Below are positions 1-26,372 of a stretch of 34,649 nt of DNA, one piece after another. Both the position numbers and the translations under genes were made by a program. This stretch comes from Nitrospirota bacterium (lineage in GTDB: Bacteria; Nitrospirota; 9FT-COMBO-42-15; HDB-SIOI813): assembly GCA_016234155.1 (NCBI GenBank), contig JACRGZ010000152.1, forward strand, positions 1 to 34,649. The letters run 5' to 3'. The notes under the pieces are model-generated. The model did not search any database and was not told the DNA's origin. It saw only the letters and a list, made by a program, of their open reading frames with translations. How positions within the stretch are numbered: the stretch's first letter is position 1; the number at the start of each line of letters is the position of its first letter.

Positions 1-737
1 CCAAGTGGCTTATTGGTACCTATAATGGTTAAAGGGATAACAGGGAGGGTTAGGAGGAAGGGGATAAGATGGTAGACCCTCCTCCACCTGTCCCTAAAAA
101 AGATACCCTCATAAAGGAGAATAACAAAAGGAAGGGTAAAGCTTATCTCCTTTGTCTTCATCGCAAGGACAGCGGAGAGAATGGAAAAGAGATAGAAAAC
201 CACTCTCGATACGGACCCAGAGGACAACCTCCATTTAACAAAGAGGACAACGGATAAAAGATAAAACAGGGTTGCAAGGGATGCATACCTCTGGACAATA
301 TAGGTAACTGCCTGGGTCTGGATGGGATGGGAGACAAAGACAAGGGAGGAAGCAAGGGCAATAAGACTATTTAGCCGTGAATTGTTAGTTAACCCGCCCA
401 TCTGCGGTGTCTTAAATGTCAGGATAACAAGCCACCAGACAAGAAGACCATTTATAATATGGATAACAATATTGACCAGGTGATATCCAGAGACATTAAA
501 TTGTCCAAAATGGTAATTCAGGGCAAAGGAGAGCTCACCTACGTATCTCGTACCCGAAAGGTCAAGAAAATTAGAAAGGTCCAGGATTTTATTATTTATA
601 ATGATACTGGTTCTATCATCAAAGTGGAATGAGGATGAAAATGTGTTGGAATATATTAGAAGGGTTGTTATAACTATAAGGGATAGCGCAATGACAGAAC
701 TGTACTTTCCAGAACGTCTCAGAGGAGAGTAAAACAT
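1..737 (-). CDS. TMTC/DUF1736-like GT-C membrane glycosyltransferase, N-terminal 245 codons only (gene continues past the left edge); seventh tandem paralog
   Basis: Absent from the ORF track (no stop in the window). Hand translation of the minus strand from ATG 737..735 gives MFYSPLRRSGKYSSVIALSLIVITTLLIYSNTFSSSFHFDDRTSIIINN...GYHLVNIVIHIINGLL...FVSHPIQTQAVTYIVQRYASLATLFYLL...LAMKTKEISFTLPFVILLYE. The frame stays open to position 3. The motif order (F-x-F-DD loop, GYH, HP...V.Y..R, K-E-hydrophobic, LYE) matches the six upstream paralogs. The ATG overlaps the upstream stop as TAATG. Track ORFs 69..257(+) and 158..361(-) lie inside it and look spurious. Confidence 0.8.
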   Translation of the reverse strand, partial: MFYSPLRRSGKYSSVIALSLIVITTLLIYSNTFSSSFHFDDRTSIIINNKILDLSNFLDLSGTRYVGELSFALNYHFGQFNVSGYHLVNIVIHIINGLLVWWLVILTFKTPQMGGLTNNSRLNSLIALASSLVFVSHPIQTQAVTYIVQRYASLATLFYLLSVVLFVKWRLSSGSVSRVVFYLFSILSAVLAMKTKEISFTLPFVILLYEGIFFRDRWRRVYHLIPFLLTLPVIPLTIIGTNKPL

Positions 738-2500
738 TATTTCACCTGTAAATCCTTTTTCAAATCTCTGCTGTTTCCCTGCAGCCTGGCCAGCTTATTC
801 CTGACTTCACCGGCCACCCTTTGATCTGAAATCCCCTTCTGCAGAAGAGCCTCATATTCCGTCATGGCCTCATTAACCCGTCCCAAATGGACCAGCGCAT
901 CTGCTAAGAGCCTGTGCCCCTCTATACCGTCCGGCCACATCAGTACGGCACGTTTGTATACATGGATCGCATCATCCAAGCGTCCCTCCTCAGTACCTTT
1001 TTTACCGACCTGCAGCAGTGCGGCATAGAAACCAGAATTCAAGCGGAAGGCCGCCCCGTACCATAAGCCGGCATCATTCAACCGTCCCTGTTTTTCAAGG
1101 ATCAGCCCCACGTTAAATACGGCTTCAGGGTCCGTCGGATTAATAATCCATGCGCGATGAAACTGTTCGAATGCCTGATCCAGTTGACCCAGGCGTGAAT
1201 AGGCTGTACCCAGGATCTCCCGGCTCAAGGCAGAATATGGTTCCTTTTGTACTGCATCGCCCCATAGGGATATATCGTCCTGCCAGACGATATTGCGCTG
1301 AATCGTCAGTGCCCCATAAATTAAAATAAGAGTTACAGTCCCTGCACAGACACCCCACCAGAGACTATGTATTCGATGCCTGGTCCAGTCCAAAAGCCGA
1401 ACCAGGCCGGTCGCCTCCAGTCCCACAATCCCAACTATGGCCAGATAGGCACGATTCTCCTGTAACACTGTATACAACTGAATAACTGCCAGCGGGCTCA
1501 GCGCCATAAAAAACCAGGCCAGCAGGAAGGCATATGTCCGTTTCGTGATATCACCGGTACTTACCCACCAAAGAATCAGTCCCAGGAGACCAACCAACAC
1601 GAGACATGCAAGGGCTACCGGCCATGCTGCAAAGGTCTTGTAAACCTCTGCCTGATGATCTATCGTCAGGTTCGCAGGCCAGAGGATCAACCCGATTGTC
1701 CTGACCAGCACCACACTCTCTGTAGCCAGTTGTTTCACGAGATCCCGGCCCACAGTCGGCGCCAGGACTGCCCCCAACATCACCTTACGGATCGCCAGAT
1801 AGGAAATGACCACCACAACACCGATACCTGCCGGCACCTGTAAACGCCTTAGATGATCCCGCCACCCTGCAGCAGGACCTAAAAACCATTCGTACAGGAG
1901 TATCGCCAATGGGAAGGTCACTGCCAGCTCCTTAGAAAGCATGGACAGGACAAAGGATATCAAAGATAGTACCAGCCAAAGGTAAGAGTTGGAAGAGCGA
2001 GAGGACAAACGATAGCGCAGGTACGCATAAAAGGCCAGCAAATAAAACATGGCGTAGAGCTGAGATGACCGGGCCGTTACATAATTTACAGCCTCGGCAT
2101 TAAAGGGATGGACCAGAAACAAAAGTCCCGCCAAAACCCCGACAGACGTCCTGCCTGTCAGACGATATAGCACCAGGGCCGTAAGAAAAGCCGTCAGGAT
2201 GTGAATCAGTATACTGAGCATGTGATACCCGAAGGGATCTAACCCGCTGATAGCATAGCTCAACATGTATGACGTATACACCATCGGACGGTAATGGATA
2301 GCCATGACAGGGTCATCCCCGGGATGCATGGTATTGCTCCAGATATCTATTAATCGAGACGCATGACGGATCCCCTCGTTTTGGAGAATGACATGGGCAT
2401 CATCAAAGGTAAATCCGTTATCAAGGGTGTTAACATAAAGGATGCCGCCCAGGATTGAGAAACCTATGAAGAGGAGTAATATCCTTATCTTAATGCCCAT
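737..2500 (-). CDS. GT-C (TMTC/DUF1736-like) membrane glycosyltransferase with C-terminal TPR repeats, paralog 1
   Basis: Track ORF 737..2599. I prefer the ATG at 2500 (MGIKIRILLLFIGF...) because GGAGGG lies about 8 nt upstream and the longer form would overlap about 110 nt of the upstream gene. Motifs: NGFTFDDAHVI, HYRPMVYTSY, HPFNAEAVNYVTARSSQLYAMFYLL, LSKELAVTFPL, LQENRAYLA, then TPR-like repeats (YSALSREILGTAYSRLGQLDQAFEQF...). Confidence 0.85.
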   Translation of the reverse strand: MGIKIRILLLFIGFSILGGILYVNTLDNGFTFDDAHVILQNEGIRHASRLIDIWSNTMHPGDDPVMAIHYRPMVYTSYMLSYAISGLDPFGYHMLSILIHILTAFLTALVLYRLTGRTSVGVLAGLLFLVHPFNAEAVNYVTARSSQLYAMFYLLAFYAYLRYRLSSRSSNSYLWLVLSLISFVLSMLSKELAVTFPLAILLYEWFLGPAAGWRDHLRRLQVPAGIGVVVVISYLAIRKVMLGAVLAPTVGRDLVKQLATESVVLVRTIGLILWPANLTIDHQAEVYKTFAAWPVALACLVLVGLLGLILWWVSTGDITKRTYAFLLAWFFMALSPLAVIQLYTVLQENRAYLAIVGIVGLEATGLVRLLDWTRHRIHSLWWGVCAGTVTLILIYGALTIQRNIVWQDDISLWGDAVQKEPYSALSREILGTAYSRLGQLDQAFEQFHRAWIINPTDPEAVFNVGLILEKQGRLNDAGLWYGAAFRLNSGFYAALLQVGKKGTEEGRLDDAIHVYKRAVLMWPDGIEGHRLLADALVHLGRVNEAMTEYEALLQKGISDQRVAGEVRNKLARLQGNSRDLKKDLQVK

Positions 2501-4241
2501 GATGTCTATCCCTCCTGTCTCCCCGCAGCCTGGCCAGCTTAGTCCCTGCTTCCTCGGCCAAATTTTGGTCATGGATCCCTTTCTCCATGGCCGCCTCATA
2601 CTCCCTTATGGCCTCTCCTGTCCGTCCTGCATGGTCAAGGGCATCGGCCAGACGATAGCGTGCAATACCGCTATCTGGAGATAGCCGCACAGCCTGTGAG
2701 AACGCCCATACAGCTTTGTCCCAATTGTTTTGCAGCTCTTCTAATTTCCCCAACCTGAAATAGGCAAGAGTATATTTAGGATTCAGCCGGATCGCCTCTA
2801 AATACCACTTTCTTGCCTCATCATATCGTTCCTGCTTCAGTGCCGTCACTCCAAGATTAAAAGCTATGTTGGAGTTGTTTGGGTCCAGAGAATACATGAT
2901 ACGGTAATGTTCCGCAGCACGGTCTAACTGCCCCATCTTTTCATAGGCCCAGCTAAGGTTGTCGTGACTTACCAGTGACTTGGGTTCCTTTTGAACTGCA
3001 TCGGTCCAGAGGGAGAGGTCATCATGCCATACAACATTACGCTGGATCGTCAAACCTCCATATATAAGGACTAAAACCAGGATCCCTGCCCACCCCCCCC
3101 ACCAGAAGACCGGCCCGCGGGTCCTGGCCCTCTCCACAACCCAGACCAGGCCAATGGCTTCAAGTCCCACAATCCCCATAGTCGCCAGGTAAGCCCTGTT
3201 CTCTTGTAAGACCGCATGAAACGGCATTACCACCAGAATACTCACTATTGAGAAAAACCATACCATATGGAAGGCATATATCCGCTTCTTTATATCGTTT
3301 GATTGTCCCCAGTAAAAGATAAGTCCAAACAGGAACAATAACACGATGCATGCCCCTAATACAGGCCACGCCATAAAGGTCTTGTAAATCTCCACCTGGT
3401 GGTCTATCGTCAAGTTGGCAGGCCATAGAATCAACCCTATTGTACGAATCAATACCACACTCTCAGTAGCAAACTGCCTCACCAGATTCCGGCCCACCGC
3501 AGACGGCACGACCTCTCCTATCAAAAACTTCCGGATCATCATATAGGAAATGACTACGGCAAGACCAAAACCTATGGGGATACTCAGTCGTCGCAGCTTA
3601 TCCTGCCACCTTACGTTTGAGCCTAACAGCCATTCGTATGCCACTACGGATAAAGGCAGGGTTACAGCCATCTCCTTGGATAACATGGACATGATAAAGG
3701 ATAATAAGAAGATACCCAGCCAGAGTTTGGGGCGGGACGGTGAACGATAACGTACATACGAATAAAAGGCTATCAGATAGAACAGCGCATAGAGCTGAGA
3801 TGACCTGGCTGTTACATAGTTTACAGCCTCCGCATTAAATGGGTGTATCAGAAACAGAAACCCTGCCAGACCTCCTATGGACAATTGACCTGTTAATTGA
3901 TAAATTACCAAGGCTACCAGAAAGGCCGTCAGGATATGAATTATCAGATTGACCACATTATAACCAATAGGATTCACCCCGCCAATGGCATAGTTCAACA
4001 TGTAAGAGGTGTATACTAATGGACGATAATGTTTCGACATGGCAGGATCATCGCCTGGGTGTTCGGTGTTAGTCCAAATATCTAAAATTTTCGAGGGAAG
4101 ACGAATTCCCTCATTATTGACAATCACATGCGCATCATCGAAGTGAAAGCTATTATCAATGGAGTTGGCGTAAAGGATCCCCCCTACAGCCATAAAACCT
4201 ATAAGGAGGAGCAGCATCATGTTACGTGGAAATTGCAGCAT
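2490..4241 (-). CDS. GT-C (TMTC/DUF1736-like) membrane glycosyltransferase with C-terminal TPR repeats, paralog 2
   Basis: 583-aa ORF. Motifs: NSFHFDDAHVI, HYRPLVYTSY, HPFNAEAVNYVTARSSQLYALFYLI, LSKEMAVTLPL, LQENRAYLA, with TPRs at the C-terminus. A 77-nt stretch (about 3790-3866) aligned by eye is about 84% identical to paralog 1 (about 2050-2126). The stop overlaps the paralog 1 start by 11 nt. Confidence 0.85.
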   Translation of the reverse strand: MLQFPRNMMLLLLIGFMAVGGILYANSIDNSFHFDDAHVIVNNEGIRLPSKILDIWTNTEHPGDDPAMSKHYRPLVYTSYMLNYAIGGVNPIGYNVVNLIIHILTAFLVALVIYQLTGQLSIGGLAGFLFLIHPFNAEAVNYVTARSSQLYALFYLIAFYSYVRYRSPSRPKLWLGIFLLSFIMSMLSKEMAVTLPLSVVAYEWLLGSNVRWQDKLRRLSIPIGFGLAVVISYMMIRKFLIGEVVPSAVGRNLVRQFATESVVLIRTIGLILWPANLTIDHQVEIYKTFMAWPVLGACIVLLFLFGLIFYWGQSNDIKKRIYAFHMVWFFSIVSILVVMPFHAVLQENRAYLATMGIVGLEAIGLVWVVERARTRGPVFWWGGWAGILVLVLIYGGLTIQRNVVWHDDLSLWTDAVQKEPKSLVSHDNLSWAYEKMGQLDRAAEHYRIMYSLDPNNSNIAFNLGVTALKQERYDEARKWYLEAIRLNPKYTLAYFRLGKLEELQNNWDKAVWAFSQAVRLSPDSGIARYRLADALDHAGRTGEAIREYEAAMEKGIHDQNLAEEAGTKLARLRGDRRDRHHGH

Positions 4242-4246
4242 CCTAC

Positions 4247-6061
4247 CTACCTCTTCTCCGGAATTTTAGTAAGCATAGTCCTGACCTCCGCTTCCAATTC
4301 CGGATCCTCGAGTTTTTTCTGCAACAGGGTCTCATATTCACCGGCGGCATCCTGATACCTGCCTGCTTTAAAGAGGGCATTACCCAACCATAGACGTACT
4401 TGATCAAGTTCCGGATCGAGACCAATAGTTTGGGAATATTCCTGAATAGCGTCACTGACACGGCCCTGCTTCTCATAAAGCAATCCGAGGGCCAGGTGGG
4501 CCTTATGAAACTGTGGGGCCAACTGGAGGGTTTGTCTGTACAATCGTTCTGCCTCATCGTACCGGCCCTGTTTATCTGTGATCAGTCCAAGATTATAAAC
4601 CCCTACAAACCGCCCAGGTTGCAGACGGATCGCCACCCGGAACTGGTCGGCCGCCTCGTCCAATCTCCCCAGCCTGCGGTAGGCAACACCCAGATTATCC
4701 CTTGCAATTACTGAAGAAGGATTTTTCTGGACAGTATCTGACCAGAGGGTCAGTTCATCCTGCCAGACCTGATTGCGCAGAATGGTGCCTCTCCCATAGA
4801 CGAGGATTATCATAATAATCGCCCCCCAAATCCACGGTTGCAGGGATGGGCATCGAATCTTAGCCCAATCCAAAAGCCGGGACATAACCAAAGCCACTAA
4901 CCCTATCAATCCTACAACTGCCAGATAGGCACGGTTTTCCTGAAGGATGTCATGTAATGGTAATAATACTATAGGAGTCAAGGCTACAAAAAACCATGCT
5001 ATCATGAAGGCGGTGAGACGTCTGTTCCGGCTGGGTGATCTGGACCACCAAAGGGTGAGAACTAATATCCCGGACAGGATAATCGAGTAACCCAGGACAG
5101 GCCAGGCAGCAAACGATTGAAAAGTAACCACCTGGTGTTCAATGGAAAGGTTGACAGGAAAAAGAAATATCCCTATGGTTTGCAACAGTACCCTGGTTTG
5201 TGTAGCCAGCCTGGTTGTCAGGTCTCTCATAATAATCTCTGGAATGCTTCCACCATATAGAAATGTCCTGACCATGATATAAGGGATTACTGTGGACAGG
5301 ACGTATCCCGCAGGGATTGCATAACCCTGCAACCGGGCACGCCACCCCTGGGGAGAACGGATCATCCATTCATAAAGGAACAGTGTCACTGGCAGCATCA
5401 CTGCCATCTCCTTTGACAGCATGGACAGTAAAAAGGCAGCAAATGATAATCCAAGGTAAGCATAGGAAAGGGATTTCCCACTTTCCTTTGAAGGTTTATC
5501 CAGGGGATGAAATTGCAGATAGGCGTAAAGGGATATTAGATAGAACAGGGCATACAACTGGGAGGACCTGGCTGTCATGAAATTCACCGCCTCCGCATTA
5601 AAGGGGTGTACCAGAAATAAGAGCCCGGCCAGGGTGCCTGTCATAAACCTGCCTGTGAGCTGACCAATCACAATGGCTGTAAGGAACGCAGTCAGAACGT
5701 GAATTAGAATATTTGCCAGGTGCCAACCTGCCGGATTCAGTCCCCCTATCCAGTAATTCAATAGATACGATGTAAACGTTAGCGGTCGATAATGCCACCT
5801 TAACCAGGACAACTCACCAGAATGTTGTTTACTGACAAATAACCCTGGCAGATTTTCTATATGATGCACCCCCTCATTTTTTACAATATAGAATTCATCG
5901 TCATAGTGAAATCCATTATCCATGGAGTTTGCATAGATAAATCCCCCGGCTATCAGATAGACCAGCAGCAACACCACTGTCTGATGTTTGATGAACCAAA
6001 TCAGTCTGCCATTCCCCATCTTCCGGATGCCGGAATCAATCTCTGTCATTGCTGCACTCAC
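4247..6061 (-). CDS. GT-C (TMTC/DUF1736-like) membrane glycosyltransferase with C-terminal TPR repeats, paralog 3
   Basis: 604-aa ORF. The codon at 6061 is GTG; alternative ATG starts are at 6049 and 6019. Motifs: NGFHYDDEFYI, HYRPLTFTSY, HPFNAEAVNFMTARSSQLYALFYLI, LSKEMAVMLPV, LQENRAYLA, plus TPRs. There is a 5-nt gap to paralog 2 and a 0-nt gap to paralog 4. Confidence 0.8.
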   Translation of the reverse strand: MSAAMTEIDSGIRKMGNGRLIWFIKHQTVVLLLVYLIAGGFIYANSMDNGFHYDDEFYIVKNEGVHHIENLPGLFVSKQHSGELSWLRWHYRPLTFTSYLLNYWIGGLNPAGWHLANILIHVLTAFLTAIVIGQLTGRFMTGTLAGLLFLVHPFNAEAVNFMTARSSQLYALFYLISLYAYLQFHPLDKPSKESGKSLSYAYLGLSFAAFLLSMLSKEMAVMLPVTLFLYEWMIRSPQGWRARLQGYAIPAGYVLSTVIPYIMVRTFLYGGSIPEIIMRDLTTRLATQTRVLLQTIGIFLFPVNLSIEHQVVTFQSFAAWPVLGYSIILSGILVLTLWWSRSPSRNRRLTAFMIAWFFVALTPIVLLPLHDILQENRAYLAVVGLIGLVALVMSRLLDWAKIRCPSLQPWIWGAIIMIILVYGRGTILRNQVWQDELTLWSDTVQKNPSSVIARDNLGVAYRRLGRLDEAADQFRVAIRLQPGRFVGVYNLGLITDKQGRYDEAERLYRQTLQLAPQFHKAHLALGLLYEKQGRVSDAIQEYSQTIGLDPELDQVRLWLGNALFKAGRYQDAAGEYETLLQKKLEDPELEAEVRTMLTKIPEKR

Positions 6062-7954
6062 TTACTGCACCGCACCTAATCGCTTCAACTGTTCCCTCGC
6101 CTTCCCGATGGCAAACTGGTTCTCGGGGCTGGACAGGTCCTGCTCTGCCACCAGCCTGTATTCTGCAATGGCCTGCACACGGTCCCCCTGTCGTTCGATA
6201 AGGCTTGCCATATTTAACCTGCTTAGGGCATCACCAGGATCAATGGACAGTGCCTTGCGGAAGTAGGAAATGGCCAGGTCCGAACGATTCTGTAACCCGT
6301 ACTCCTCGCCCAAGATCACATACCCTTCCACAAAGGATTTATTATATTCCACTGCCTTCAGGAATTCCTGTATAGCCAGGTCCCTTCGGTTCTGTCGCCT
6401 GTATACAAGTCCCAGGTTAAAGTGGGCCTCGGCGATATCGTAACCGGATCTCAATGCCTCTATCAGCACTTTCTCAGCCTGTGACAGTTGTCCTGCATCA
6501 TAGTATAACTTCCCCAGATTCAGGTAGACAAGGGAATCTCCCGGATCAAGGGAAATGGCCTTTTGATATTCTGCAAGGGCCAAACCCTGGCGGTTCCCTG
6601 AGCGATATGCCCTTCCCAAAAAGGTGTGCGCCCTGGCCAGGTCAGGCGATTTTCTTACCGCATCCTGCCATAGTGCAAGGTCGCTGTCCCATACGACATT
6701 CCGCTGATAGGTCAGACCCGAATATATGATGGCAACAAGGATTATCACCCCCCATTGAACTGTCCTCATCCGTGGAAAATATTTAGCGCCTTCTGAAAAA
6801 AGAAGGGCAAACAGTTGAACCATAGTGAATATTATTCCGGCGGCCGAGAGGTATCCGCGGTTTTCTTGTAAAAGAGAACCAAGAGGAATCAACACTGTTG
6901 GAAGTTGTGTTACAAAAAACCAGGCCACACCGAAAGAGAGTATGCGGGAAGTACGCCCTCCCCGCGTCATGCATATTGCAGCGGCCGCCACAAGCCCCAG
7001 GATCACGCCTAAGGCCGCAAGGGGAGGCCATGCAAGTATTGTATGCATCACAGGAATATAGTGCTCTATCGTCAGTCCGATCGGGAGTAGTATGAGTTGA
7101 AGCATTTTTACTAATACGAGCGGGGCAGTAGCCAATTGCGAGGACATTCCTCTGGCATAGGTATCGGATAAGGGGGTCCCGTAGAAAAAAACTCGCATCG
7201 AGAGATACGGGAGAACTACCGCTGACAGGAAGATGACTGGTATCCCCCAGGAGGCTGCACGAAAGAATCCACCCTTGGGAGCACGCCTGAAGGTGATTTC
7301 ATAAAGATAGAGGGTGACAGGCACTGTCGCCGCAACCTCCTTGCTGAGCATTGCAAGGACAAATGTGCCAAAAGAGATCCCAAGCCACAACCTTCCATAA
7401 TGAGCAGTATGGCGGGGTTCCGTTTCCCGTGGAGGGCGGGCCCGCATATAGGCATAAACGGATAACAGATAGAAAAAGGTCGCCATGACGGATGATCTGG
7501 CCGTGATGTAGTTCACCACCTCTGAGTTAAAGGGGTGGAGTAGAAACAGCATCCCCGTTATACCGCCCAATCCGTGAGAACCCGTTAATAGTGCCGTTAT
7601 TAAACAGAGCAGGAAGGCCGCACCCACATGGAGCCCCAGATTGACTATATGATATCCTGCGGGATTGAGTCTGCCCAGTGCATAATTGATATTGTACGAC
7701 GCGTAGGTAATGGGGCGAAAGGTGTGGGTAAACCGCTCTGAACCGCTTGAGTATATCGGATTGTAGAAGAGTTTAGGGATGTTCTCTGTGGATTGGAGGT
7801 AATGGTTGTTTACAATGTCATGCTCGTCGTCATAATGAAACGGGTTGTCAAGGGCGTTTGCATACAGGACGAGACCGAGTATTCCATAAATGAGCCCATA
7901 AATGAGGAAGGTCACCCACTTGTTCTTATGTGATACACGCTGCACAAGGTTCAT
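6062..7954 (-). CDS. GT-C (TMTC/DUF1736-like) membrane glycosyltransferase with C-terminal TPR repeats, paralog 4
   Basis: 630-aa ORF. Motifs: NPFHYDDEHDI, FRPITYASY, HPFNSEVVNYITARSSVMATFFYLL, LSKEVAATVPV, LQENRGYLS, and a longer TPR tail. The start overlaps the paralog 5 stop as ATGA. Confidence 0.85.
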   Translation of the reverse strand: MNLVQRVSHKNKWVTFLIYGLIYGILGLVLYANALDNPFHYDDEHDIVNNHYLQSTENIPKLFYNPIYSSGSERFTHTFRPITYASYNINYALGRLNPAGYHIVNLGLHVGAAFLLCLITALLTGSHGLGGITGMLFLLHPFNSEVVNYITARSSVMATFFYLLSVYAYMRARPPRETEPRHTAHYGRLWLGISFGTFVLAMLSKEVAATVPVTLYLYEITFRRAPKGGFFRAASWGIPVIFLSAVVLPYLSMRVFFYGTPLSDTYARGMSSQLATAPLVLVKMLQLILLPIGLTIEHYIPVMHTILAWPPLAALGVILGLVAAAAICMTRGGRTSRILSFGVAWFFVTQLPTVLIPLGSLLQENRGYLSAAGIIFTMVQLFALLFSEGAKYFPRMRTVQWGVIILVAIIYSGLTYQRNVVWDSDLALWQDAVRKSPDLARAHTFLGRAYRSGNRQGLALAEYQKAISLDPGDSLVYLNLGKLYYDAGQLSQAEKVLIEALRSGYDIAEAHFNLGLVYRRQNRRDLAIQEFLKAVEYNKSFVEGYVILGEEYGLQNRSDLAISYFRKALSIDPGDALSRLNMASLIERQGDRVQAIAEYRLVAEQDLSSPENQFAIGKAREQLKRLGAVQ

Positions 7955-9771
7955 CTCGGGATTTCTAACTCCCTTTGGAGTGATGGGTCCAACCTGACAG
8001 CATAGTCAAATGCTTGTCTGGAAGCCAGGGCATCACCATGCTCCTTGTAAAGGCGCCCTGCCAGAAACTGGATTCTGGGTAGATTCGGGTTTCTTTCCAA
8101 CACCTGGCTTAACAGCCTTAATGCCTTGTCCGGCGAACCCTCCTGTTGATATATCATGCTCAGATTGTAGAGGGCTATTTCACTGTAAGGATAGATTCTG
8201 AGGGCTGTTTCAAACTCATTGCGGGCTAACTCCATATCTCCCCGTCTTTTATATAAAATCCCCAGGCTCGTATGTGCCCGTTCGAATAAGGGGTCAATAC
8301 TAAGGGCATCCCTGTACTCTTTCTCTGCAAGGTCTTCCCGTTTTAAATGCATGTAGAGCCCGCCCATATCATTATGAAGGTCCGGACGGTCATTATTGAG
8401 TTTCAAGGCCATCTGCAGCTCGCTCGCCGCAGCATCCAACCATCCAATATGTTTATAGGCTATTCCAAGGGAGTGGTGAGCCTGATAAAATCCGGGCGCC
8501 TTTCTGACAGCATCCTGCCAGAGATTTATACTGCTGTCCCAAACCCGATTCCGCTCCCGTATTCCTGCCCCATAAACTACAAGTACAACTGCAAAGAGAA
8601 CCCATCTGGCCATTTTCAGTTTCCCCTCCTGCCACCTTTCCATGCAGGTGAACAAAAGGGCTGTAAGGGCAGTAAATGCAAGGAATGCGATATAAACCCG
8701 ATTCTCCTGAAGGGAGGCATTGAGGGGGAGGAGGATTGTGGGTAATAGCGTAATGTAGAACCAGGCTAATGCAAACCCCATCACTTTAAGATTCCTGTTT
8801 GAGGATCTGAGTCCCCACACCATGACTGCCAGGAGTACCGTCAATAATAACACGCCTCCCACAACTCCCCTCTCAAAGAAAGAGTTGGGTTCAGGTATGT
8901 CATGCATCAGAGTAAGATTCACAGGGAAAAGCAGCATCTGCCATGTAATTGCAAGGGCCTTGACCTGTAACACAAGGTTCGTTATCAAATCCCGTATTAA
9001 GACCGGAGGGCCTACTACCCCTATAACCAGCTTTCGGACTATCAGGTAGCATAGAGAGATCAGAAAGAAGGGGACCATACGCCTTGACAGCCCTTTCCAA
9101 TCCCTGCCTGCCGAAGGGATAAAAATCATCTCATACAGGATTAGCATAAGCGGCAGGGTAATTAATATCTCTTTGGTCAAAATGCCCAGGAGAAACGCTG
9201 CCCATGAGAGATATCTCCACTGGAGTTCCTCCGCCCCACCCTTCACTGATGCAGCATCCTGATTCGACGGCCTGTACCGGAGATAGGCATAAAAGGCCAG
9301 GAGGTAAAAAAATGTTGCCATTACAGAAGACCGGGCCGTCACATAGTTCACTACCTCTGCATTAACAGGGTGGAATAACATAACCAGACCGGCAACAAGG
9401 GCTGGTAAGTTGGATCTCAACATTACACTTACGATGAGAAACACCAGAAACGACGACCCCACATGAAACGCCAGATTTACCAGGTGATAGCCAATCGGAT
9501 TCAGTCTCCCTATCCAATAGTTGAGCACAAAGGTGGAGAGCAATAAAGGCCGGTAGTGTCCAGCCCCAAAAGCAGTCTCTCTGCTATTACGTGTGTTTTC
9601 ATAGAAAAAGGTGGGGATACTGCCTACGTCCCTGATAAATGAGTTTTCAATAATCTGATGATTATCATCATAATAGAAGCCGTTATCCAGAGACGTTACA
9701 TAGAGGGCCAGTCCTGACACAATAAAGATTAATAAAATCCACCTCTTCAGAAAAATCTTTTCTAATATCAT
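7951..9771 (-). CDS. GT-C (TMTC/DUF1736-like) membrane glycosyltransferase with C-terminal TPR repeats, paralog 5
   Basis: 606-aa ORF. Motifs: NGFYYDDNHQI, HYRPLLLSTF, HPVNAEVVNYVTARSSVMATFFYLL, LTKEILITLPL, LQENRVYIA, plus TPRs. The start overlaps the paralog 6 stop as ATGA. Confidence 0.85.
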   Translation of the reverse strand: MILEKIFLKRWILLIFIVSGLALYVTSLDNGFYYDDNHQIIENSFIRDVGSIPTFFYENTRNSRETAFGAGHYRPLLLSTFVLNYWIGRLNPIGYHLVNLAFHVGSSFLVFLIVSVMLRSNLPALVAGLVMLFHPVNAEVVNYVTARSSVMATFFYLLAFYAYLRYRPSNQDAASVKGGAEELQWRYLSWAAFLLGILTKEILITLPLMLILYEMIFIPSAGRDWKGLSRRMVPFFLISLCYLIVRKLVIGVVGPPVLIRDLITNLVLQVKALAITWQMLLFPVNLTLMHDIPEPNSFFERGVVGGVLLLTVLLAVMVWGLRSSNRNLKVMGFALAWFYITLLPTILLPLNASLQENRVYIAFLAFTALTALLFTCMERWQEGKLKMARWVLFAVVLVVYGAGIRERNRVWDSSINLWQDAVRKAPGFYQAHHSLGIAYKHIGWLDAAASELQMALKLNNDRPDLHNDMGGLYMHLKREDLAEKEYRDALSIDPLFERAHTSLGILYKRRGDMELARNEFETALRIYPYSEIALYNLSMIYQQEGSPDKALRLLSQVLERNPNLPRIQFLAGRLYKEHGDALASRQAFDYAVRLDPSLQRELEIPR

Positions 9772-11873
9772 CGAAATCGCTCCAGTTCATTTCTGGCAAG
9801 GGAAATAGCCGTCTGATTCCTTCCTTTGGCGGGATCCAGCGTGAGGACCTTTTTGTATAGGTCCCTTGCCTTAACGGATTCCCCTAACTGCTCGTAGAGT
9901 TTCCCCAGTGTAAGGTATCCGAAACCATCCTCAGGCTGGAGGGTCACTGCCTGCTGGAACGTATGGATCGCCTCCCTGGGCCTTCTAATTGTCAGGTACT
10001 CCTTTCCCAGTGCGATGTAGGCATCCGCATAGGAAGGGTTCAGGGATACTACCTTCTCAAATGACCTGATCGCCGGTTCGTGGTCACCCTGTTGTTGATA
10101 AAAAATCCCCATCTGCATCTGAATACCCGGCAGATTCGGATTTCTGCTAAGTGTTCGTGTATAAAGTCCAATAGCCTTCTCCTGATGACCCCCCTGTTGA
10201 TAGATTGTCCCTAAGTTGATCAGTGCAGTTTCGTTGAAGGGATTGAGGCGAGTGGCTGCTTCGAAGGATTGAACAGCCTCTCCTGTCCGGCCATTCTGGC
10301 TATAAAGGAGCCCCATGTTGCTGTAGGCAAGGTCATACTCAGGATTAATGCGGATGGCCTCTTCAAATTGCCGGAGGGCTTCATCCGGCCTATTGGTCTC
10401 GTTGTAGAGGGCACCAAGATCGTTGTGTAAGACAGGGTCCTTGTCTTCAATTTCGAGGGCCCTCAGGTATTCCACCTCTGCCTGATCCAGACGCCCCTGA
10501 CGCTGATAGGCTGATCCCATGCCAAAGTGTGGCCCATAGGAGGACGGCGACTTCCGGATTGCGTCTTGCCAGAGGGTAACTTCACTCCCCCAAACCCTGT
10601 TTCTATCCCATACCCCGATTGAGTATAGGATCAGTATCAATCCGATAACAGATACAAATACCACACGTCTCCGTGTCTGAAGAAGGGACTCTACTATAAG
10701 GACCAATGCCCCAATAATTCCCGCAAAGGCAACAGACGCGATGTATCCCCGGTTTTCCTGAAGCACTGCGGTGAGGGGAATAATGGTCGTGGGAAGCAGG
10801 GTCACATAGAACCATGCGAGAAAAAAACCGATTACCCGAAGGGCACGGTGTCGCGAACGCCAGAACCATAGCATCGCTGCTAGGAGGACTACCAACAGTA
10901 CCAACGCCCCCACAAATGTCAGATCCCGTACAGACTTGACCATTGGTACCGGGTGTTCAATACTGAGGTTGATGGGGGCAATAAGCATCTGCCATGTGGA
11001 TGCCAGTACCTTAACCTGGATCAGGATATTCTCAACCAGTCCCCTCGCCACAGCCACAGGTCCGACCACTCCAACGACCAGCTTCTTGATAATCATATAA
11101 CCAAGAGGAATGGCTATAAACGGGGCGATCACTAAGGCTAAGCTCCTACAATTCCCCTTCCCATTAATCCCCACCCGTGAGGGGAGGGGGTGAGGGGGAG
11201 GGTGGGCTACGGAGATTTTCGTATGAAGAACATACTCATAAAGGATAAGGATAAGGGGTAAGGTAATCAATATCTCTTTGGTCAGCATCCCGAGTCCAAA
11301 CGCTGCCCAGGAGAGATAGACCCACCGTCTGTCCCCTGCGATCTTCGTTATGGGCGCGGGTTCCTGAATGCCCTGTCTATACCGGACATAGGCATAAAAG
11401 GCCAACAGGTAGAAAAAGACGGCCATGACAGATGACCGGGCTGTCACATAGTTCACCACCTCTGAATTAAAGGGATGGAATAACATGACCAGACCGGCGG
11501 CAAGACCGGCATAGAAGGAGGTCAACATCAGGTTCACAATCAGAAACACCAGAAACGCCGTACCCACATGAAAGGCCAGATTCACCAGATGGTATCCTAT
11601 GGGATTCAGACCTCCAAGGGCATAGTTGATCGCAAAGGTGGAGAGTAGTACCGGGCGGTAGTGCAGTGTTTCCACAGGACTCCTCGATCCGGTAGCAATA
11701 TCTGTGAAAAAGGAGGGGATGCCGGTCAGGCTCCTGATCGAGGAGTTTTGCAGAATCTGATGGGCATCATCGTATGTAAAAACACTGTCCAATGCGGTTG
11801 AATACAGGATAAGTCCGGCTATTCCAAATAACAGCAGAATTCTTAAAAACATAGGACGATTATATTGACTCAT
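9768..11873 (-). CDS. GT-C (TMTC/DUF1736-like) membrane glycosyltransferase with a long C-terminal TPR domain, paralog 6 (first gene of the array)
   Basis: 701-aa ORF. Motifs: SVFTYDDAHQI, HYRPVLLSTF, HPFNSEVVNYVTARSSVMAVFFYLL, LTKEILITLPL, LQENRGYIA, followed by about 290 aa of TPRs. The real start may be ATG 11852 (MFLRILLLFGIAG...), because an exact sigma-70 consensus promoter has its -10 box inside codons 3-5 of the long form. One loop carries an extra segment of about 20 aa (VAHPPPHPLPSRVGINGKGN) encoded by a G/C-rich palindromic element. Confidence 0.85.
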   Translation of the reverse strand: MSQYNRPMFLRILLLFGIAGLILYSTALDSVFTYDDAHQILQNSSIRSLTGIPSFFTDIATGSRSPVETLHYRPVLLSTFAINYALGGLNPIGYHLVNLAFHVGTAFLVFLIVNLMLTSFYAGLAAGLVMLFHPFNSEVVNYVTARSSVMAVFFYLLAFYAYVRYRQGIQEPAPITKIAGDRRWVYLSWAAFGLGMLTKEILITLPLILILYEYVLHTKISVAHPPPHPLPSRVGINGKGNCRSLALVIAPFIAIPLGYMIIKKLVVGVVGPVAVARGLVENILIQVKVLASTWQMLIAPINLSIEHPVPMVKSVRDLTFVGALVLLVVLLAAMLWFWRSRHRALRVIGFFLAWFYVTLLPTTIIPLTAVLQENRGYIASVAFAGIIGALVLIVESLLQTRRRVVFVSVIGLILILYSIGVWDRNRVWGSEVTLWQDAIRKSPSSYGPHFGMGSAYQRQGRLDQAEVEYLRALEIEDKDPVLHNDLGALYNETNRPDEALRQFEEAIRINPEYDLAYSNMGLLYSQNGRTGEAVQSFEAATRLNPFNETALINLGTIYQQGGHQEKAIGLYTRTLSRNPNLPGIQMQMGIFYQQQGDHEPAIRSFEKVVSLNPSYADAYIALGKEYLTIRRPREAIHTFQQAVTLQPEDGFGYLTLGKLYEQLGESVKARDLYKKVLTLDPAKGRNQTAISLARNELERFR
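11154..11207. repeat. G/C-rich palindromic element lying in frame inside paralog 6
   Basis: Sequence: ccccttcccattaatccccacccgtgaggggagggggtgagggggagggtgggc. It contains the inverted repeat cccaccc/gggtggg. Its complement carries cccaccctccccctc, which matches 14 of 15 positions of cccaccctgcccctc at 34613-34627. The five paralogs that cover this loop (paralogs 1-5) lack the corresponding peptide segment; the partial seventh gene leaves the window within or just after this loop, so it cannot be compared. Confidence 0.5.
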
Positions 11874-11887
11874 CCTTTCCCTGTCAA
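11859..11887 (-). promoter_or_regulatory. Exact sigma-70 consensus promoter for the TMTC-like array (leaderless geometry)
   Basis: The minus strand reads TTGACA gggaaaggatgagtcaa TATAAT cgtcct ATG. The -35 box is at 11887..11882, the spacer is 17 nt, and the -10 box is at 11864..11859. The A of ATG 11852 is the 7th nt after the -10 box. Confidence 0.6.
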
Positions 11888-11961
11888 GTTAGCCACAGGA
11901 CCAAAATCCACCACCTATTATATACCTGTATATACATGCAGCGTCCCAGACTTGCTCGTCT

Positions 11962-12651
11962 CTACTTTTTTATAAAATTGTATTTAATAACACACCAGAG
12001 GGCACTGACCCCATCCTTCCACCCTATCTTTTTCCCCTCCGCATAATCCCTGCCACTGTAGGATATTCCAACCTCGTAAATCCTGTATTTCCCTTTTGCT
12101 ATCTTGGCGGTAATCTCCGGCTCAAAACCAAAACGGTCCTCTTTAATGTGAATTTGTTTAATAACTTCGGATCGAAAGACCTTGTAACCTGTCTCCATAT
12201 CCGAAAGGTTCAGGTTGGTAGCCATATTAGAAATTAACGTCAGAAGAGAATTGCCAAGGAAGTGCCAGAAGAATAATATACGCCGCTGTTCAGTCGTCAT
12301 AAAGCGGGAGCCGTATACGACATCCGCCTTCCCCTCCAGGATTGGCCTGATCAGTTTATGATATTCCTGTGGATTATATTCAAGATCAGCATCTTGTATA
12401 ATCACAATATCTCCGGTTACATTCCTGAACCCGGTCCTTAATGCCGCCCCTTTCCCCTTATTCTTATCATGGTAGAATACACGAATATTAGGGCCTTTCT
12501 CCATGCTTTTCAGTACATCCCGTGAACCGTCTGTAGAGTAATCGTCTACTATCACTAGTTCCTTATCCAGATCTACTTCCATCACCCTCTGGATAATCTC
12601 TCTGATTGAATTCACTTCATTGTAGACTGGAATGACAATTGAAAGCATCAT
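11962..12651 (-). CDS. GT2-family polyprenyl-phosphate sugar synthase (DPM1/Ppm1/GtrB/ArnC-like)
   Basis: 229-aa ORF. Motifs: MMLSIVIPVYNE, VIVDDYSTDGS, KNKGKGAALRTGF, IIQDADLEYNPQEY (DXD motif), VVYGSRF. No C-terminal TM segments are evident. The start overlaps the upstream stop as ATGA. Confidence 0.8.
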   Translation of the reverse strand: MMLSIVIPVYNEVNSIREIIQRVMEVDLDKELVIVDDYSTDGSRDVLKSMEKGPNIRVFYHDKNKGKGAALRTGFRNVTGDIVIIQDADLEYNPQEYHKLIRPILEGKADVVYGSRFMTTEQRRILFFWHFLGNSLLTLISNMATNLNLSDMETGYKVFRSEVIKQIHIKEDRFGFEPEITAKIAKGKYRIYEVGISYSGRDYAEGKKIGWKDGVSALWCVIKYNFIKK

Positions 12652-14252
12652 GGCTGAATATGCCTATAGTAGATCACAATAGCACCATCTTTGTTGTAAT
12701 AGATATCTCCTTTATAGCCTAATTTCGACTGTATAACTTCATGAATATAGAAAAGCTCACCTGGTATTGCATGCGTCGCTAATAACCAGAACGGTCTTCC
12801 TGCCTCGATGCACGGCTTAATATCTTCAATATATTCGGGGTTATTGCCCCGGTGCATCTTTCCAATAAAGACAGGAGAAGTGATAGACAACGCATTGTAA
12901 TAATGTCGGGAATAATATTCAAATGCAAGATCTCCTCCATAGTAAATATATACCGGTTCATTGTCATTGCGCTTCTCCTCTAAGATAGAAAGCGCTGATC
13001 TCATGTCCTGGACCAGAGGATATTGTTTATACCAGAAATATCCCTTGTTATTTTTATAATACAAACCAGCATCTGCGACTGCCACAGGGATCAGGAACAA
13101 ACCAAGATAGGCAACCGGTCTCAGGAGGGGAATTACCATTGATAACCGCCAGATGGATCTGATGCCGGATATAAACAAAATAATAAAACAAGGGATTGTA
13201 AAAAGGTTGACACGGTTTCCGCCAAATGGATACCTTTGGAGAACAGAGGCAATCAATAGAAGGAAGAAGACAATCCCCCAGTAAGCGACTATTCGAGTCC
13301 TGTTTGACCGGTATAATTCCCATATACCAACAAGGCTTAAAAACATTGCTATTGGCGCATATCCATTCCAGAAATAAACAAAAAAACTCCAACTCCCTGT
13401 TATCAGCCATTTCAAAAAGGGTATGGGTTCTACTAAGTCAGGAAAGGCAGTGCGCCAATAAGATTCTAATCCAGGGGTCACCTGATTTCTGATAACCGTA
13501 AAATATAGTATTAAAAATGAAACCATGATTAAGGAAAACGTTCCGACCCAGTAAAAAACCATCCTGTACTTTTCTCTATCAGGTATATTTATTTTCGAAA
13601 TATTCTTTGCTATATCCCACAATAAAATGGTTCCCACAGAGCACAACACAAAAACAAGAGGATAAGAAAACCACAGGCCAATGGCTCCGGAGATAGCCAG
13701 CATGCCCCATGAAGCAGACCTGTGCCTTTGCTGTATGATATGCTCGGCTATGAGGATTAACAGCAGGCTAAAGAAGATATCCGCAGTATATTGCTTTAGT
13801 TCTTGTGAATATGCCATAAGAACAGGAAGGGCAGCAAAAAGAATCAGCGCCCCTATAGCCTCTGTCTTTCCTAAGAACCGCTTTACACTGTAATAGATTA
13901 AGGCCATCCCCCCTATGCTGAATAGCGCTGGAATGATACGCAAAAACCATTCATTATTCTTGAATAGATGAACGGATAGGTATATGGAGGAGATGAATAG
14001 AGGCGGGACAGGCCACTGCGTAAAGGAGATAGAGGAAAAACTGCCGGATGATGCAAGGTTTGCAACCCATGCCTCGTCTCTCCAGAGAGGCCTTTCACCG
14101 AGATTGTAGAGCCTGATAAACATCCCCACAAGGAAAATTAAGCCAACGAACCATGGTCCTTCAATAAGTGAGTGAAGTCTCTTTTGAGTTATTTTATACA
14201 CTATGAATCTGTTTTTTGGGGCTATAGTAGCCAAAAAGCATTTATACGTCAA
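12648..14252 (-). CDS. Polytopic GT-C membrane glycosyltransferase (PMT_2/ArnT, GT39-like) without TPRs, with a C-terminal soluble domain
   Basis: 534-aa ORF. The first loop reads RLYNLGERPLWRDEAWVANL (W-x-DEA motif after TM1), followed by about 11 hydrophobic segments and then a soluble tail of about 120 aa. The start codon at 14252 is TTG with CAGGAAG about 7 nt upstream, so the exact start is uncertain. The gene is AT-rich. Confidence 0.7.
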   Translation of the reverse strand: MTYKCFLATIAPKNRFIVYKITQKRLHSLIEGPWFVGLIFLVGMFIRLYNLGERPLWRDEAWVANLASSGSFSSISFTQWPVPPLFISSIYLSVHLFKNNEWFLRIIPALFSIGGMALIYYSVKRFLGKTEAIGALILFAALPVLMAYSQELKQYTADIFFSLLLILIAEHIIQQRHRSASWGMLAISGAIGLWFSYPLVFVLCSVGTILLWDIAKNISKINIPDREKYRMVFYWVGTFSLIMVSFLILYFTVIRNQVTPGLESYWRTAFPDLVEPIPFLKWLITGSWSFFVYFWNGYAPIAMFLSLVGIWELYRSNRTRIVAYWGIVFFLLLIASVLQRYPFGGNRVNLFTIPCFIILFISGIRSIWRLSMVIPLLRPVAYLGLFLIPVAVADAGLYYKNNKGYFWYKQYPLVQDMRSALSILEEKRNDNEPVYIYYGGDLAFEYYSRHYYNALSITSPVFIGKMHRGNNPEYIEDIKPCIEAGRPFWLLATHAIPGELFYIHEVIQSKLGYKGDIYYNKDGAIVIYYRHIQP

Positions 14253-14273
14253 CAGAATTCTTCCTGCCCTGCG

Positions 14274-15818
14274 CTATTTATGCGCCGTCTCTAAAATCGC
14301 TAAGTAGGTATCCGTAAGGTCAAATTTCTCAATTATCTTCAGGGCATAATTTTGGTCCAAACGTTGTTCAAATGCCTTCTTATCATCAGAAGTAAAATAG
14401 TAAAAATGAGGAGCGCCGGATGGGTTGTCTTTGCCAAATTTTCTAATCCAGGTCAGATTATCTTTAACGATATAAAAATTCATGCTTGGCTTAAACAACC
14501 AGGTAACCCCTAATCTGATTGTATCAGGCGGGAGGTTGTATTTACTTGTCGTTTCTGCTATTTGCTCTATTACCTTTTTAGTGTTGGCGTCATATTTCCA
14601 ATTATTATAATATCGAAAATTGGCGCTGTTAATAAAATGAAGTATTAATGCGGCTGAAGGAATATAAAAAATCAAAACCATGAACGCCCTAATATATTTT
14701 TTATCAGAGTGAGGTAAAATATTTTTCCACAAGGCTAATACATAAAGGAAAAACATAGGGATAAAAAAGATGGCGGTCCTCTCGATTACATAAAGTGTGT
14801 TAAATAACAGATGCTGCAAAATAATACCTGCCGAACAGATCAGTAACATGAGAGACATCCATAATAAATAATTTCTTAGAAGGTTTGGCAAGTTTTCTTT
14901 CTGAAATGCAAAAAACAAAGTCAACCCGGCTAATACTAACATCATGATAATCCATATTTTTATAAAGAATATGGTGTCCCAATTCCCATATTTCTTACTA
15001 TACAATGTAGCCGAAATCAAACTTGTCACTGTGTCTTGCCAAAAACCGTTCGATCCGCCAAAGTAAAATTCATCGAGCTGTTTCATTAACATAACAGGCC
15101 TGTAATAAATCAAGAATAGCAAAAACATACCTGGGAAAACAAAAAAGGCGGTTTTCAGAATATCCGGTGATTTTTTTTGTAAAATAACCTCACTGATCTC
15201 CAAGAGGACTAACAGACATATTGCTGTTAAATAGACATTTAAAAAGGTTAAATTAGCCAGGGTTGATATTGCCAGCATCGTAGTCGCTAAAAAAGATTCA
15301 TACCTGTCTCTATTGCCCCCTAAGGTATAAATTCTTCTAAAGAGATAATATAATCCAAACATTAAGAAACCTAATCCCAATGCGTAGCCACGGGCTATAG
15401 ATAGATAGTCCAATATAAACGGATTACAGATCATTAATAAGATTCCTGCTACTAAGAGCCATTTATCCAGGAATAATTTTAGTATCTTATAGGTACCTAT
15501 AACGTATAATATACCCCCGATTAATGCGGGAAGCCTGACTGTAAATTCATGCAAACCAAATAATTTAATAAATATCTTAATCAGGAGAGTATTTAAAAGA
15601 TGATTGTTAGACTTATTAAATCTTCCGGCATTGGTAAAGATATCTGAAAAAGGCAGGGTGGCATGAAACAGACAGGTTATGGCTTCATCGTGGGTAATAG
15701 ACAGAGAATATGCCCTCATACCTATATAGAAGATCGCTCCGGCAATAGATAAATACGCCAGGCCTTCATATACATTTATCATTGATTTTCGCAAAGCCAT
15801 AACTTCTCTATCCAGCAT
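14274..15818 (-). CDS. Polytopic GT-C-like membrane glycosyltransferase (PMT_2/ArnT-like) without TPRs
   Basis: 514-aa ORF. It has an early loop motif SLSITHDEAITCLF, many hydrophobic segments and a soluble C-terminal tail. It is strongly AT-rich (a spot count at 14581-14640 gives 30% GC). Confidence 0.6.
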   Translation of the reverse strand: MLDREVMALRKSMINVYEGLAYLSIAGAIFYIGMRAYSLSITHDEAITCLFHATLPFSDIFTNAGRFNKSNNHLLNTLLIKIFIKLFGLHEFTVRLPALIGGILYVIGTYKILKLFLDKWLLVAGILLMICNPFILDYLSIARGYALGLGFLMFGLYYLFRRIYTLGGNRDRYESFLATTMLAISTLANLTFLNVYLTAICLLVLLEISEVILQKKSPDILKTAFFVFPGMFLLFLIYYRPVMLMKQLDEFYFGGSNGFWQDTVTSLISATLYSKKYGNWDTIFFIKIWIIMMLVLAGLTLFFAFQKENLPNLLRNYLLWMSLMLLICSAGIILQHLLFNTLYVIERTAIFFIPMFFLYVLALWKNILPHSDKKYIRAFMVLIFYIPSAALILHFINSANFRYYNNWKYDANTKKVIEQIAETTSKYNLPPDTIRLGVTWLFKPSMNFYIVKDNLTWIRKFGKDNPSGAPHFYYFTSDDKKAFEQRLDQNYALKIIEKFDLTDTYLAILETAHK

Positions 15819-15872
15819 GACTGAACAAATGATAATAAATCACACACGTTAGGGAATATATATGCTCCTCCA

Positions 15873-26369: not shown

Positions 26370-26372
26370 GTC

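Follow-up and report, generated by a model that had tools for sequence, protein, structure and literature searches.

A tandem array of at least seven genes for predicted TMTC-family glycosyltransferases with tetratricopeptide repeats in a Nitrospirota bacterium

Contig JACRGZ010000152.1 of the Nitrospirota assembly GCA_016234155.1 begins with a tandem array of seven minus-strand genes (g1 to g7) whose products join a polytopic membrane domain to tetratricopeptide repeats (TPRs). The window analysed here is that entire contig of 34,649 bp, and the array occupies positions 1-11873 (Table 1). Profile comparisons place the membrane domain in the TMTC family, which is family GT105 in CAZy (PMC8724618, PMC10214176). 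The reading that we consider just on the probable side is that the array forms a single transcription unit encoding seven or more TMTC-family (GT105, GT-C) inner-membrane glycosyltransferases, which would use a sugar donor loaded by an adjacent GT2-type glycosyltransferase and deliver it to acceptors selected by their TPRs. Full-length TMTC-like proteins, with both transferase and TPR regions, occur in many poorly characterised prokaryotes (PMC7801869), and this kind of protein is already known because Eisenhaber et al. noted it there. What the array adds is a set of genuine TMTC-family enzymes with an adjacent donor synthase, an expansion in some lineages, and TPR evolution specific to each paralogue.

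Six of the seven genes are complete (583-701 aa), and g7 is truncated where it runs off the contig end at position 1. Since the window is the whole contig, the array may extend past it. Each protein has a polytopic domain of about 400 aa, and TPR families of Pfam match the C-terminal 180-280 residues of all six complete members (E 1e-12 to 1e-46). The paralogues share 29-50% identity with g1. A family profile matches g1-g7 at about E 1e-60 to 1e-150 (1e-59 to 9e-62 for g7), so the similarity of the seven proteins is not due to chance. Mis-assembly of a repeat was considered as the origin of the seven copies and ruled out, as they are 29-63% identical at the protein level and have distinct orthologues elsewhere. 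A preliminary description, made from the sequence alone, had reported seven tandem genes of one architecture with TPRs in the six whose 3' ends are present, and our analysis recovers this arrangement together with every gene junction that it listed (Table 1). The 11-nt overlap between g5 and g6 holds provided that g6 begins at ATG 2500; the start of this gene is ambiguous, with ATG 2572 (the NCBI call, giving 611 aa) and ATG 2599 as the other candidates. The earlier remark that bacterial members are annotated merely as TPR or DUF1736 proteins also applies here, where NCBI names the window proteins 'tetratricopeptide repeat protein'.

Membership of the TMTC family was assessed with two profiles. 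One was based on TMTC1-4 of human and Drosophila, whose N-terminal regions were taken from Additional file 1 of PMC7801869; the other, A3, comprises the N-terminal domains of the window paralogues and of bacterial homologues in 396 positions. A3 matches all eight animal TMTCs (TMTC1-4 of human and fly) over positions 13-395 with 147-213 bits, and the animal profile matches g1-g7 at about E 1e-21 to 1e-31 (Z=20000), the value for g7 being 6e-21. ArnT and the two PMT_2-type proteins encoded in the window are matched by neither profile, for which reason the two PMT_2 genes were rejected as additional members of the array. Because the matches are reciprocal, end-to-end and specific, we assign the membrane domain of the array proteins to the TMTC family, as the preliminary description had proposed from motifs and architecture. 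General searches say little beyond this. Against Pfam and NCBIfam, both the complete proteins and their N-terminal halves gave TPR families only, besides weak hits: H_PPase, CNNM and DUF2061 appear at chance level (E 0.011-0.085), and the PMT_2 model of Pfam matches g1 alone and weakly (E=0.016). No match of the array proteins to DUF2723/TMEM260 was found, and the membrane domain retrieved nothing meaningful from the PDB, whether by sequence or by profile. A profile search of a 5.8-billion-protein set reached no named eukaryotic TMTCs, a search limited by its word prefilter. Several homologues are labelled 'protein O-mannosyl-transferase' by JGI, and three more distant bacterial ones (P0089, P0113 and P0131) carry PF08409.

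The predicted fold agrees with this assignment. AlphaFold2 modelled full-length g5 with a predicted local distance difference test score (pLDDT) of 94.3 and a predicted template modelling score (pTM) of 0.92, with the TPR helices above 90 in pLDDT, and the N-terminal 400 residues alone at 88.9 and 0.90. Foldseek was run against the PDB with the N-terminal model, as the full-length model retrieves mostly TPR proteins. GT-C enzymes make up 24 of the 25 top hits (probability 0.92-1.00; TM-score by query 0.38-0.57) and include archaeal AglB, ArnT, Pmt4, AftD, STT3, DPY19, Pmt1/Pmt2, PglB and EmbA/B; rank 19 is an iron importer with a probability of 0.13, and everything under rank 25 is noise (<0.15). 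No TMTC structure is among the PDB hits. The model has 11 transmembrane helices. Lysine and arginine together have a density of 0.23-0.32 in loops predicted as cytoplasmic vs 0.06-0.08 in those predicted as periplasmic in all seven proteins, and by the positive-inside rule this distribution puts the N-terminus inside and the loop with the double aspartate (DD), the other motif-bearing loops and the TPRs outside. The GT-C fold and the periplasmic placement of DD loop and TPRs, both of which had been suggested before, are therefore also what structure prediction and loop composition indicate. We thus picture the array products as predicted inner-membrane enzymes with 11 transmembrane segments, a cytoplasmic N-terminus and, in the periplasm, a domain of 5-9 TPRs; an 11-segment topology has been deduced for TMTCs as well (PMC7801869).

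The membrane domains carry, in order, the motifs [FY]x[FY]DD, HYRP, HPxNxExVNYxTARSS, [ST]KE and LQENRxY. The preliminary description had claimed this set for every gene; the order and the presence of the motifs stand, with deviations in g2, g3, g4 and g7. Conserved residues correspond to motifs M1-M4 and M7 of the TMTC family (Eisenhaber 2021, PMC7801869). The M1 motif [FY]x[FY]DD is found in all seven proteins, and its aspartates D35 and D36 do not vary among 64 homologues, in which H133-P134, R146 and K189 vary little or not at all. M2, which is SHKSYRP in loop 1 of the TMTCs, appears as HYRP in g1, g2, g4, g5 and g6 and as TFRP in g3. The divergent subtype g7 reads HPIQTQAVTYIVQRYAS and lacks HYRP, its M2 region being deleted or divergent. 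M3 (RxD in loop 2 of the TMTCs) is here ARSS, that is RxS, or QRYA in g7, with a nearly invariant arginine, R146. M4 (KE(T/Q)xxT in loop 3) is here [ST]KExxxT with identical spacing and an invariant lysine; g4 has SKEMAVM, in which a methionine replaces the final threonine. At M5, where the TMTCs have DW in loop 4, the array has NL[ST][IL][DE]H, a motif closer to the HEH of ArnT than to that of the TMTCs. M7 (ERxxY in loop 5) is here LQENRxY, with glutamate and tyrosine in register and the arginine one position off; ERxxY itself is present in more distant homologues within A3. In g2 the loop-4 motif is NLTLMH, with a methionine in place of the aspartate or glutamate at a position that coordinates metal in TMTC models, and g2 may be catalytically altered or may use the following aspartate instead. 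Since the TMTC motifs are largely kept in each copy, the catalytic apparatus looks intact throughout the array, with g2 as a possible exception.

This conservation bears on whether the proteins are enzymes at all. They might instead be membrane-anchored TPR scaffolds or chaperones in which the GT-C-like domain is a relic, as could be read from their public annotation as 'tetratricopeptide repeat protein' and from the failure of Pfam to see a catalytic family. We give this hardly any credence: the DD pair is invariant in the 64 homologues and H-P, R and K-E nearly so, at positions that bind metal, phosphate or sugar in models of TMTC and ArnT; a gene for a donor synthase lies adjacent; and between paralogues the catalytic halves are better conserved than the TPR halves.

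The TPR halves show a pattern of their own. Among the window paralogues the mean identity is 41.7% for the catalytic halves and 33.6% for the TPR halves. Between orthologues in the window and in L001, a Logan contig with a related array, the TPR halves are of equal length and as conserved as the catalytic ones (55 vs 54% for copy 1, 58 vs 54% for copy 2). Being conserved between orthologues yet divergent between paralogues, the TPR half appears to carry constrained information specific to each paralogue. This fits paralogue-specific recognition of acceptors, and the array would then form an acceptor-specific panel in which one paralogue serves one acceptor set. The duplicates g5 and g6 look mosaic: their catalytic halves are nearest to copy 5 of L001 (54-56%), and their TPR halves to copy 4 (41-47% vs 29-31%). 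As the two halves have different nearest copies, an exchange of halves by recombination between neighbouring genes is suggested.

The same paralogues could also be subunits of one hetero-oligomer in the style of Pmt1-Pmt2 or POMT1-POMT2, or could work one after another on a single acceptor, building up a short glycan. The way in which stop codons overlap or adjoin the next start codons suggests that they are expressed together in fixed ratios, PMT-family GT-C enzymes are described as obligate dimers (PMC12705809), and g2, without an acidic residue in the fourth loop (EL4), could be a non-catalytic partner. We nevertheless find such an arrangement unlikely indeed, as loci have from 1 to 7 copies, expansions are lineage-specific and g5/g6 is a duplication, all of which is unlike a fixed stoichiometry, and as the DD pair and most other motifs are kept in each copy.

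That the array is read as an operon, as had been proposed from its junctions, agrees with its tight packing (overlaps or gaps of at most 5 nt) and with a promoter-like site of its own, a perfect match to the sigma-70 consensus directly upstream (Table 1). Perfect matches of this kind are rare, with 11 in the 1.38 Mb of all loci; three of them are in the window, each at a gene start. Because a 12/12 consensus so uncommon across the loci stands directly before g1, the array appears to form a separately transcribed unit within a larger envelope-glycosylation locus, and this putative promoter may be used in vivo. Its predicted transcript start is ATG 11852, which would make the g1 message leaderless. 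As the promoter overlaps the start of the longer open reading frame (ORF), ATG 11852 is probably the true start of g1, giving 694 aa, which is also the length of the database representative P0164. The three perfect promoters of the window (11859-11887 on the minus strand, 18709-18736 on the minus strand and 29282-29311 on the plus strand) belong to g1, to the gene of a 949-aa TPR protein (TPR-949) and to a multihaem cytochrome gene, respectively. Their -10 boxes lie inside, or a few bases ahead of, the longest ORF starts, and this position points to leaderless or near-leaderless mRNAs and to true ORFs that are shorter than the longest ones. The cytochrome promoter is kept at 21327-21354 of L002, a Nitrospirae metagenome-assembled genome (MAG).

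Immediately upstream of the array lies a GT2 gene whose product is of the polyprenyl-phosphate monosaccharide synthase type. It matches PF00535 at 1.4e-35; its best PDB match is the dolichyl-phosphate mannose (Dol-P-Man) synthase of P. furiosus (5mlz, 3.7e-20), followed by ArnC and GtrB, and its NCBIfam matches, all below cut-off, are AglJ (8e-37), ArnC, PpgS, PgfS and dolichyl-phosphate hexose transferase. All of these load one sugar onto a polyprenyl phosphate, the kind of donor used by GT-C enzymes. Of 84 loci, 16-17 have such a GT2 no more than 10 kb from a family member. The GT2 likely supplies the donor for the array enzymes, and a three-step scheme can be drawn. The GT2 would load a monosaccharide onto polyprenyl phosphate at the cytoplasmic face; the lipid-linked sugar would be flipped, one PMT_2 protein (12648..14252) having a weak, sub-threshold hit (49 bits vs a cut-off of 126) to the flippase-activity-associated Agl23; and each TMTC-like enzyme would then, on the periplasmic side, pass the sugar on to the particular acceptors that its own TPRs select.

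Table 1. Features of the window discussed in the text.
Feature	Coordinates	Strand	Length	Description
g7	1..737	-	245 aa (N-terminal part)	Seventh, more divergent member; TAATG junction with g6
g6	737..2500	-	587 aa if ATG 2500 is used	TMTC-family GT-C + TPR; 11-nt overlap with g5 (ATG 2500)
g5	2490..4241	-	583 aa	TMTC-family GT-C + TPR; member modelled with AlphaFold2; 5-nt gap to g4
g4	4247..6061	-	604 aa	TMTC-family GT-C + TPR; GTG start; 0-nt gap to g3
g3	6062..7954	-	630 aa	TMTC-family GT-C + TPR; ATGA overlap with g2
g2	7951..9771	-	606 aa	TMTC-family GT-C + TPR; ATGA overlap with g1
g1	9768..11873	-	701 aa by ORF	TMTC-family GT-C domain; longest TPR domain of the array
Sigma-70 consensus	11859..11887	-		TTGACA-17-TATAAT, 12/12; consensus match before the array
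GT2	11962..12651	-	229 aa	Polyprenyl-phosphate monosaccharide synthase type (DPMS/ArnC/GtrB/AglJ-like)
PMT_2-type GT-C	12648..14252	-	534 aa	No TPR; low-GC cassette
PMT_2-type GT-C, second	14274..15818	-	514 aa	No TPR; low-GC cassette
TPR-949	15873..18722	-	949 aa	Signal peptide + ~640-aa TPR + ~290-aa C-terminal domain; heads transcription unit
Secreted giant	20328..26369	+	2013 aa	fn3 + CBM_4_9, 22% Ser+Thr; candidate acceptor (speculative)
He_PIG protein	26439..28529	+	696 aa	He_PIG (Ig-like) + fn3; candidate acceptor (speculative)

Animal TMTC1-4 are Dol-P-Man-dependent O-mannosyltransferases of cadherins and protocadherins (PMC7801869, PMC8724618). The array proteins resemble them in a membrane domain of about 400 aa that is homologous end to end; in 11 transmembrane segments with the N-terminus in, the C-terminus out and a non-cytoplasmic TPR domain; in the DD of loop 1, (H)YRP, the HP...R of loop 2, the KExxxT of loop 3 and the E.R.Y of loop 5; and in the presence of several paralogues per genome. 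They differ in being bacterial, so that the periplasm takes the place of the endoplasmic reticulum and an undecaprenyl-type carrier is expected rather than dolichol, in an EL4 loop that is shorter and lacks DNPA and DW, and in forming a tandem array that is predicted to be co-transcribed.

The nearest characterised bacterial enzyme, compared by architecture only, is TfpW of P. aeruginosa, a protein of 646 aa whose N-terminus is inside and which has 11 transmembrane segments, TPRs in the periplasm and, in loop 1, a DDx that is essential (bioRxiv 10.1101/2020.04.19.049825). TfpW is an arabinofuranosyltransferase that uses a polyprenyl-phosphate sugar and places D-arabinofuranose (D-Araf) on group IV type IV pilin (bioRxiv 10.1101/2020.04.19.049825). 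The statement in the preliminary description that no bacterial member has an assigned acceptor overlooks this enzyme, which has the matching architecture and glycosylates pilin (bioRxiv 10.1101/2020.04.19.049825); we found no paper linking TfpW to TMTC or DUF1736. The likeness to the array lies in the architecture, in the type of sugar donor (a polyprenyl-phosphate sugar, predicted for the array) and, for TfpW, in a protein acceptor. Unlike the array, TfpW is encoded by a single gene directly after that of its acceptor, pilA, and polymerises D-Araf, whereas the gene upstream of the array is the GT2 rather than a pilin gene, the downstream side being cut by the contig end. PMT/POMT enzymes (GT39, including actinobacterial Pmt) and TMEM260 share the GT-C fold, an acidic motif in the first loop and O-glycosylation of proteins from a polyprenyl-phosphate sugar, and the structural hits include Pmt1, Pmt2 and Pmt4; TMEM260 likewise bears TPR-like repeats (PMC10214176). 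The PMTs differ in having a MIR beta-trefoil in a loop, versus the C-terminal TPRs of the array proteins. By analogy with TMTC1-4 and with the pilin glycosylation of TfpW, the acceptors would most likely be serines and threonines of exported or surface proteins. We infer both the identity of the donor sugar and the choice of protein, rather than glycan, as acceptor.

With the same enzymes and donor, the acceptors could alternatively be glycans or lipids. The array proteins would then be third components like those of the Gtr and ArnT systems, adding different side-branch sugars, or one sugar at different positions, to an exopolysaccharide, to lipopolysaccharide (LPS) or O-antigen, to an S-layer glycan or to lipid A, with the TPRs docking on export machinery. 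We regard this as a real but lesser possibility. ArnT, which acts on lipid A, is among the closest solved folds, and an adjacent GT2 of the ArnC/GtrB/DPMS type would feed a periplasmic GT-C enzyme, in the classic three-component layout of glycan decoration after polymerisation (PMC11194591). ArnT and GtrC, however, lack TPRs and act on lipid A or O-antigen; the family profile does not match the ArnT sequence; and there is no gene for a GtrA-type flippase at the array. The domain is specifically TMTC-like, with no match to ArnT in either direction, and the characterised enzymes that combine 11 transmembrane segments, DD and TPRs, namely TMTC1-4, TMEM260 and TfpW, all glycosylate proteins (PMC7801869, PMC10214176, bioRxiv 10.1101/2020.04.19.049825). 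Conservation of the TPRs by paralogue is also easier to understand with distinct protein partners.

Several observations nevertheless count against TMTC-family enzymes that glycosylate proteins. None of g1-g7 is matched by PF08409 (DUF1736) even at E<=10, so Pfam does not bear out the DUF1736 label given in the preliminary description; the model fails because EL4, a shorter loop here, has neither the animal DNPA stretch nor DW. The motifs depart from those of the TMTCs in the change of DW to [DE]H (MH in g2) and of RxD to RxS and in the shifted arginine of M7. No small membrane ORF resembling GtrA, as expected of a flippase, was found in 11.8-20.4 kb. The operon is headed by a TPR protein with a putative barrel, an arrangement of the exopolysaccharide-export type, and the neighbours that recur across phyla are GT4, DegT, GFO and epimerases, with sugar-nucleotide and GT4 genes abundant in the neighbourhoods of other phyla; both observations fit glycan acceptors equally well. 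The association of arrays with a giant secreted protein, a candidate acceptor considered below, is limited to three related Nitrospirota loci. ORFs of at least 1000 aa are near 7 of 24 loci with three or more copies vs 6 of 60 loci with one or two (Fisher p=0.04), a suggestive yet weak difference that is limited to certain lineages. Finally, the function of the array is itself assigned by homology and context.

TPR-949, at the head of the larger unit, ends in a domain rich in serine, threonine, glycine and tyrosine that closes with ...YYSVAF. This domain is a probable outer-membrane barrel, a reading kept as a prediction because neither Pfam nor the PDB gives a match to it. The layout recalls that of exopolysaccharide exporters which we take to combine TPRs with an outer-membrane barrel, such as BcsC, PgaA and PelB. 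The true start of TPR-949 is probably ATG 18698, behind the perfect promoter at 18736-18709, and a terminator-like hairpin lies ahead of this promoter. In L001 the orthologue of TPR-949 (47% identity) is directly upstream of the array. Since the array there follows the TPR-949 orthologue without the GT2 and PMT_2 genes, these look inserted in the window, and the low-GC cassette was probably acquired by horizontal transfer. The GC content of the GT2 and the two PMT_2 genes (about 11960-15820) is 0.37-0.41 vs 0.47-0.51 in the flanking DNA, and the best NCBIfam matches of the cassette are to archaeal Agl families (AglJ and Agl23).

A divergently transcribed block on the other side of TPR-949 encodes the secreted giant and the He_PIG protein of Table 1, a 250-aa protein of no recognised kind and a 932-aa multihaem cytochrome. 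This four-gene block (20328-32080 on the plus strand) is syntenic with genes beside the four-copy array of L002 (12811-21914), where the He_PIG protein has a syntenic homologue with 47% identity; the array proteins of that MAG are just 31-35% identical to those of the window. Homologues of the giant adjoin TMTC-like arrays in L002 and L005 (38-41% identity), of the block the giant alone being conserved in L005 (13915-20013). In RBG_16_43_11 the array beside the giant has three copies. The mosaic look of g5 and g6 and the presence of the giant/He_PIG block beside arrays in three Nitrospirota genomes led us to a bolder proposal. The array would be a bacterial counterpart of the animal TMTC-cadherin system, perhaps a relative of its ancestor, in which each paralogue, by its own TPRs, would choose particular Ig-like, fn3 or He_PIG domains of the adjacent giants rich in serine and threonine for O-glycosylation in the periplasm, and in which duplication and the swapping of halves yield new specificities. 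We hold this version to be rather unlikely. In the window, an FGE-sulfatase-type gene (32083-32886) follows the cytochrome gene.

The family to which the array belongs is very large, with 139,452 representatives of 50%-identity clusters at E<=1e-3 and 69,556 at E<=1e-30. Mostly labelled 'TPR protein', these clusters point to a large class of enzymes for glycosylation in the periplasm that is mis-annotated. The array members are compact bacterial proteins, confidently modelled, with which TMTC-type catalysis and acceptor choice guided by TPRs could be studied structurally and biochemically; the practical limit is that the host organisms are uncultured. A scan of GTDB species genomes gave at least 586 relatives, of which the best 79 loci were examined; these are MAGs of Nitrospirota/Thermodesulfovibrionia, Omnitrophota, Desulfobacterota, Planctomycetota, Gemmatimonadota, Latescibacterota, KSB1, Patescibacteria and others. 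Array length was taken as the longest same-strand tandem run within +-10 kb. This run is one copy at 51 loci, two at 15, three at 8, four at 1, five at 4, six at 1 and seven at 3. Runs of five to seven thus occur at 8 of the 79 loci of other species, in several phyla, and seven copies at 3 of the 79, so that the description of seven copies in a row as an unusual expansion was overstated. Because equal or similar runs recur at other loci, seven copies are the upper tail of a recurrent pattern and not unique.

Three further loci, outside the 79, were fetched through individual homologues. L001 has five copies behind its TPR-949 orthologue, and two other Nitrospirota MAGs have four copies and five-plus-one copies. 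In a neighbour-joining tree four orthogroups stand in the same order in the window and in L001, where the orthologue of g1 has 51% identity; g3 has no orthologue in L001. The tree also identifies g5 and g6 as recent duplicates, with 63-64% identity in the catalytic half, and groups the copies by genome in more distant MAGs. These shared orthogroups, the recent g5/g6 duplication and the clustering by genome lead us to interpret the history of the arrays as birth-and-death evolution with independent expansions in different lineages. The representatives P0162 (969 aa), P0167 (1270 aa) and P0180 (923 aa) each have two stretches that match the catalytic-domain profile, and are either fused tandem copies or the result of gene-call read-through of adjacent members. 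In two other Nitrospirota MAGs, L002 (1-2608) and L004 (17641-20013), TMTC-like arrays are flanked or interrupted by genes for proteins of 790-986 aa that contain a Spermine_synth domain.

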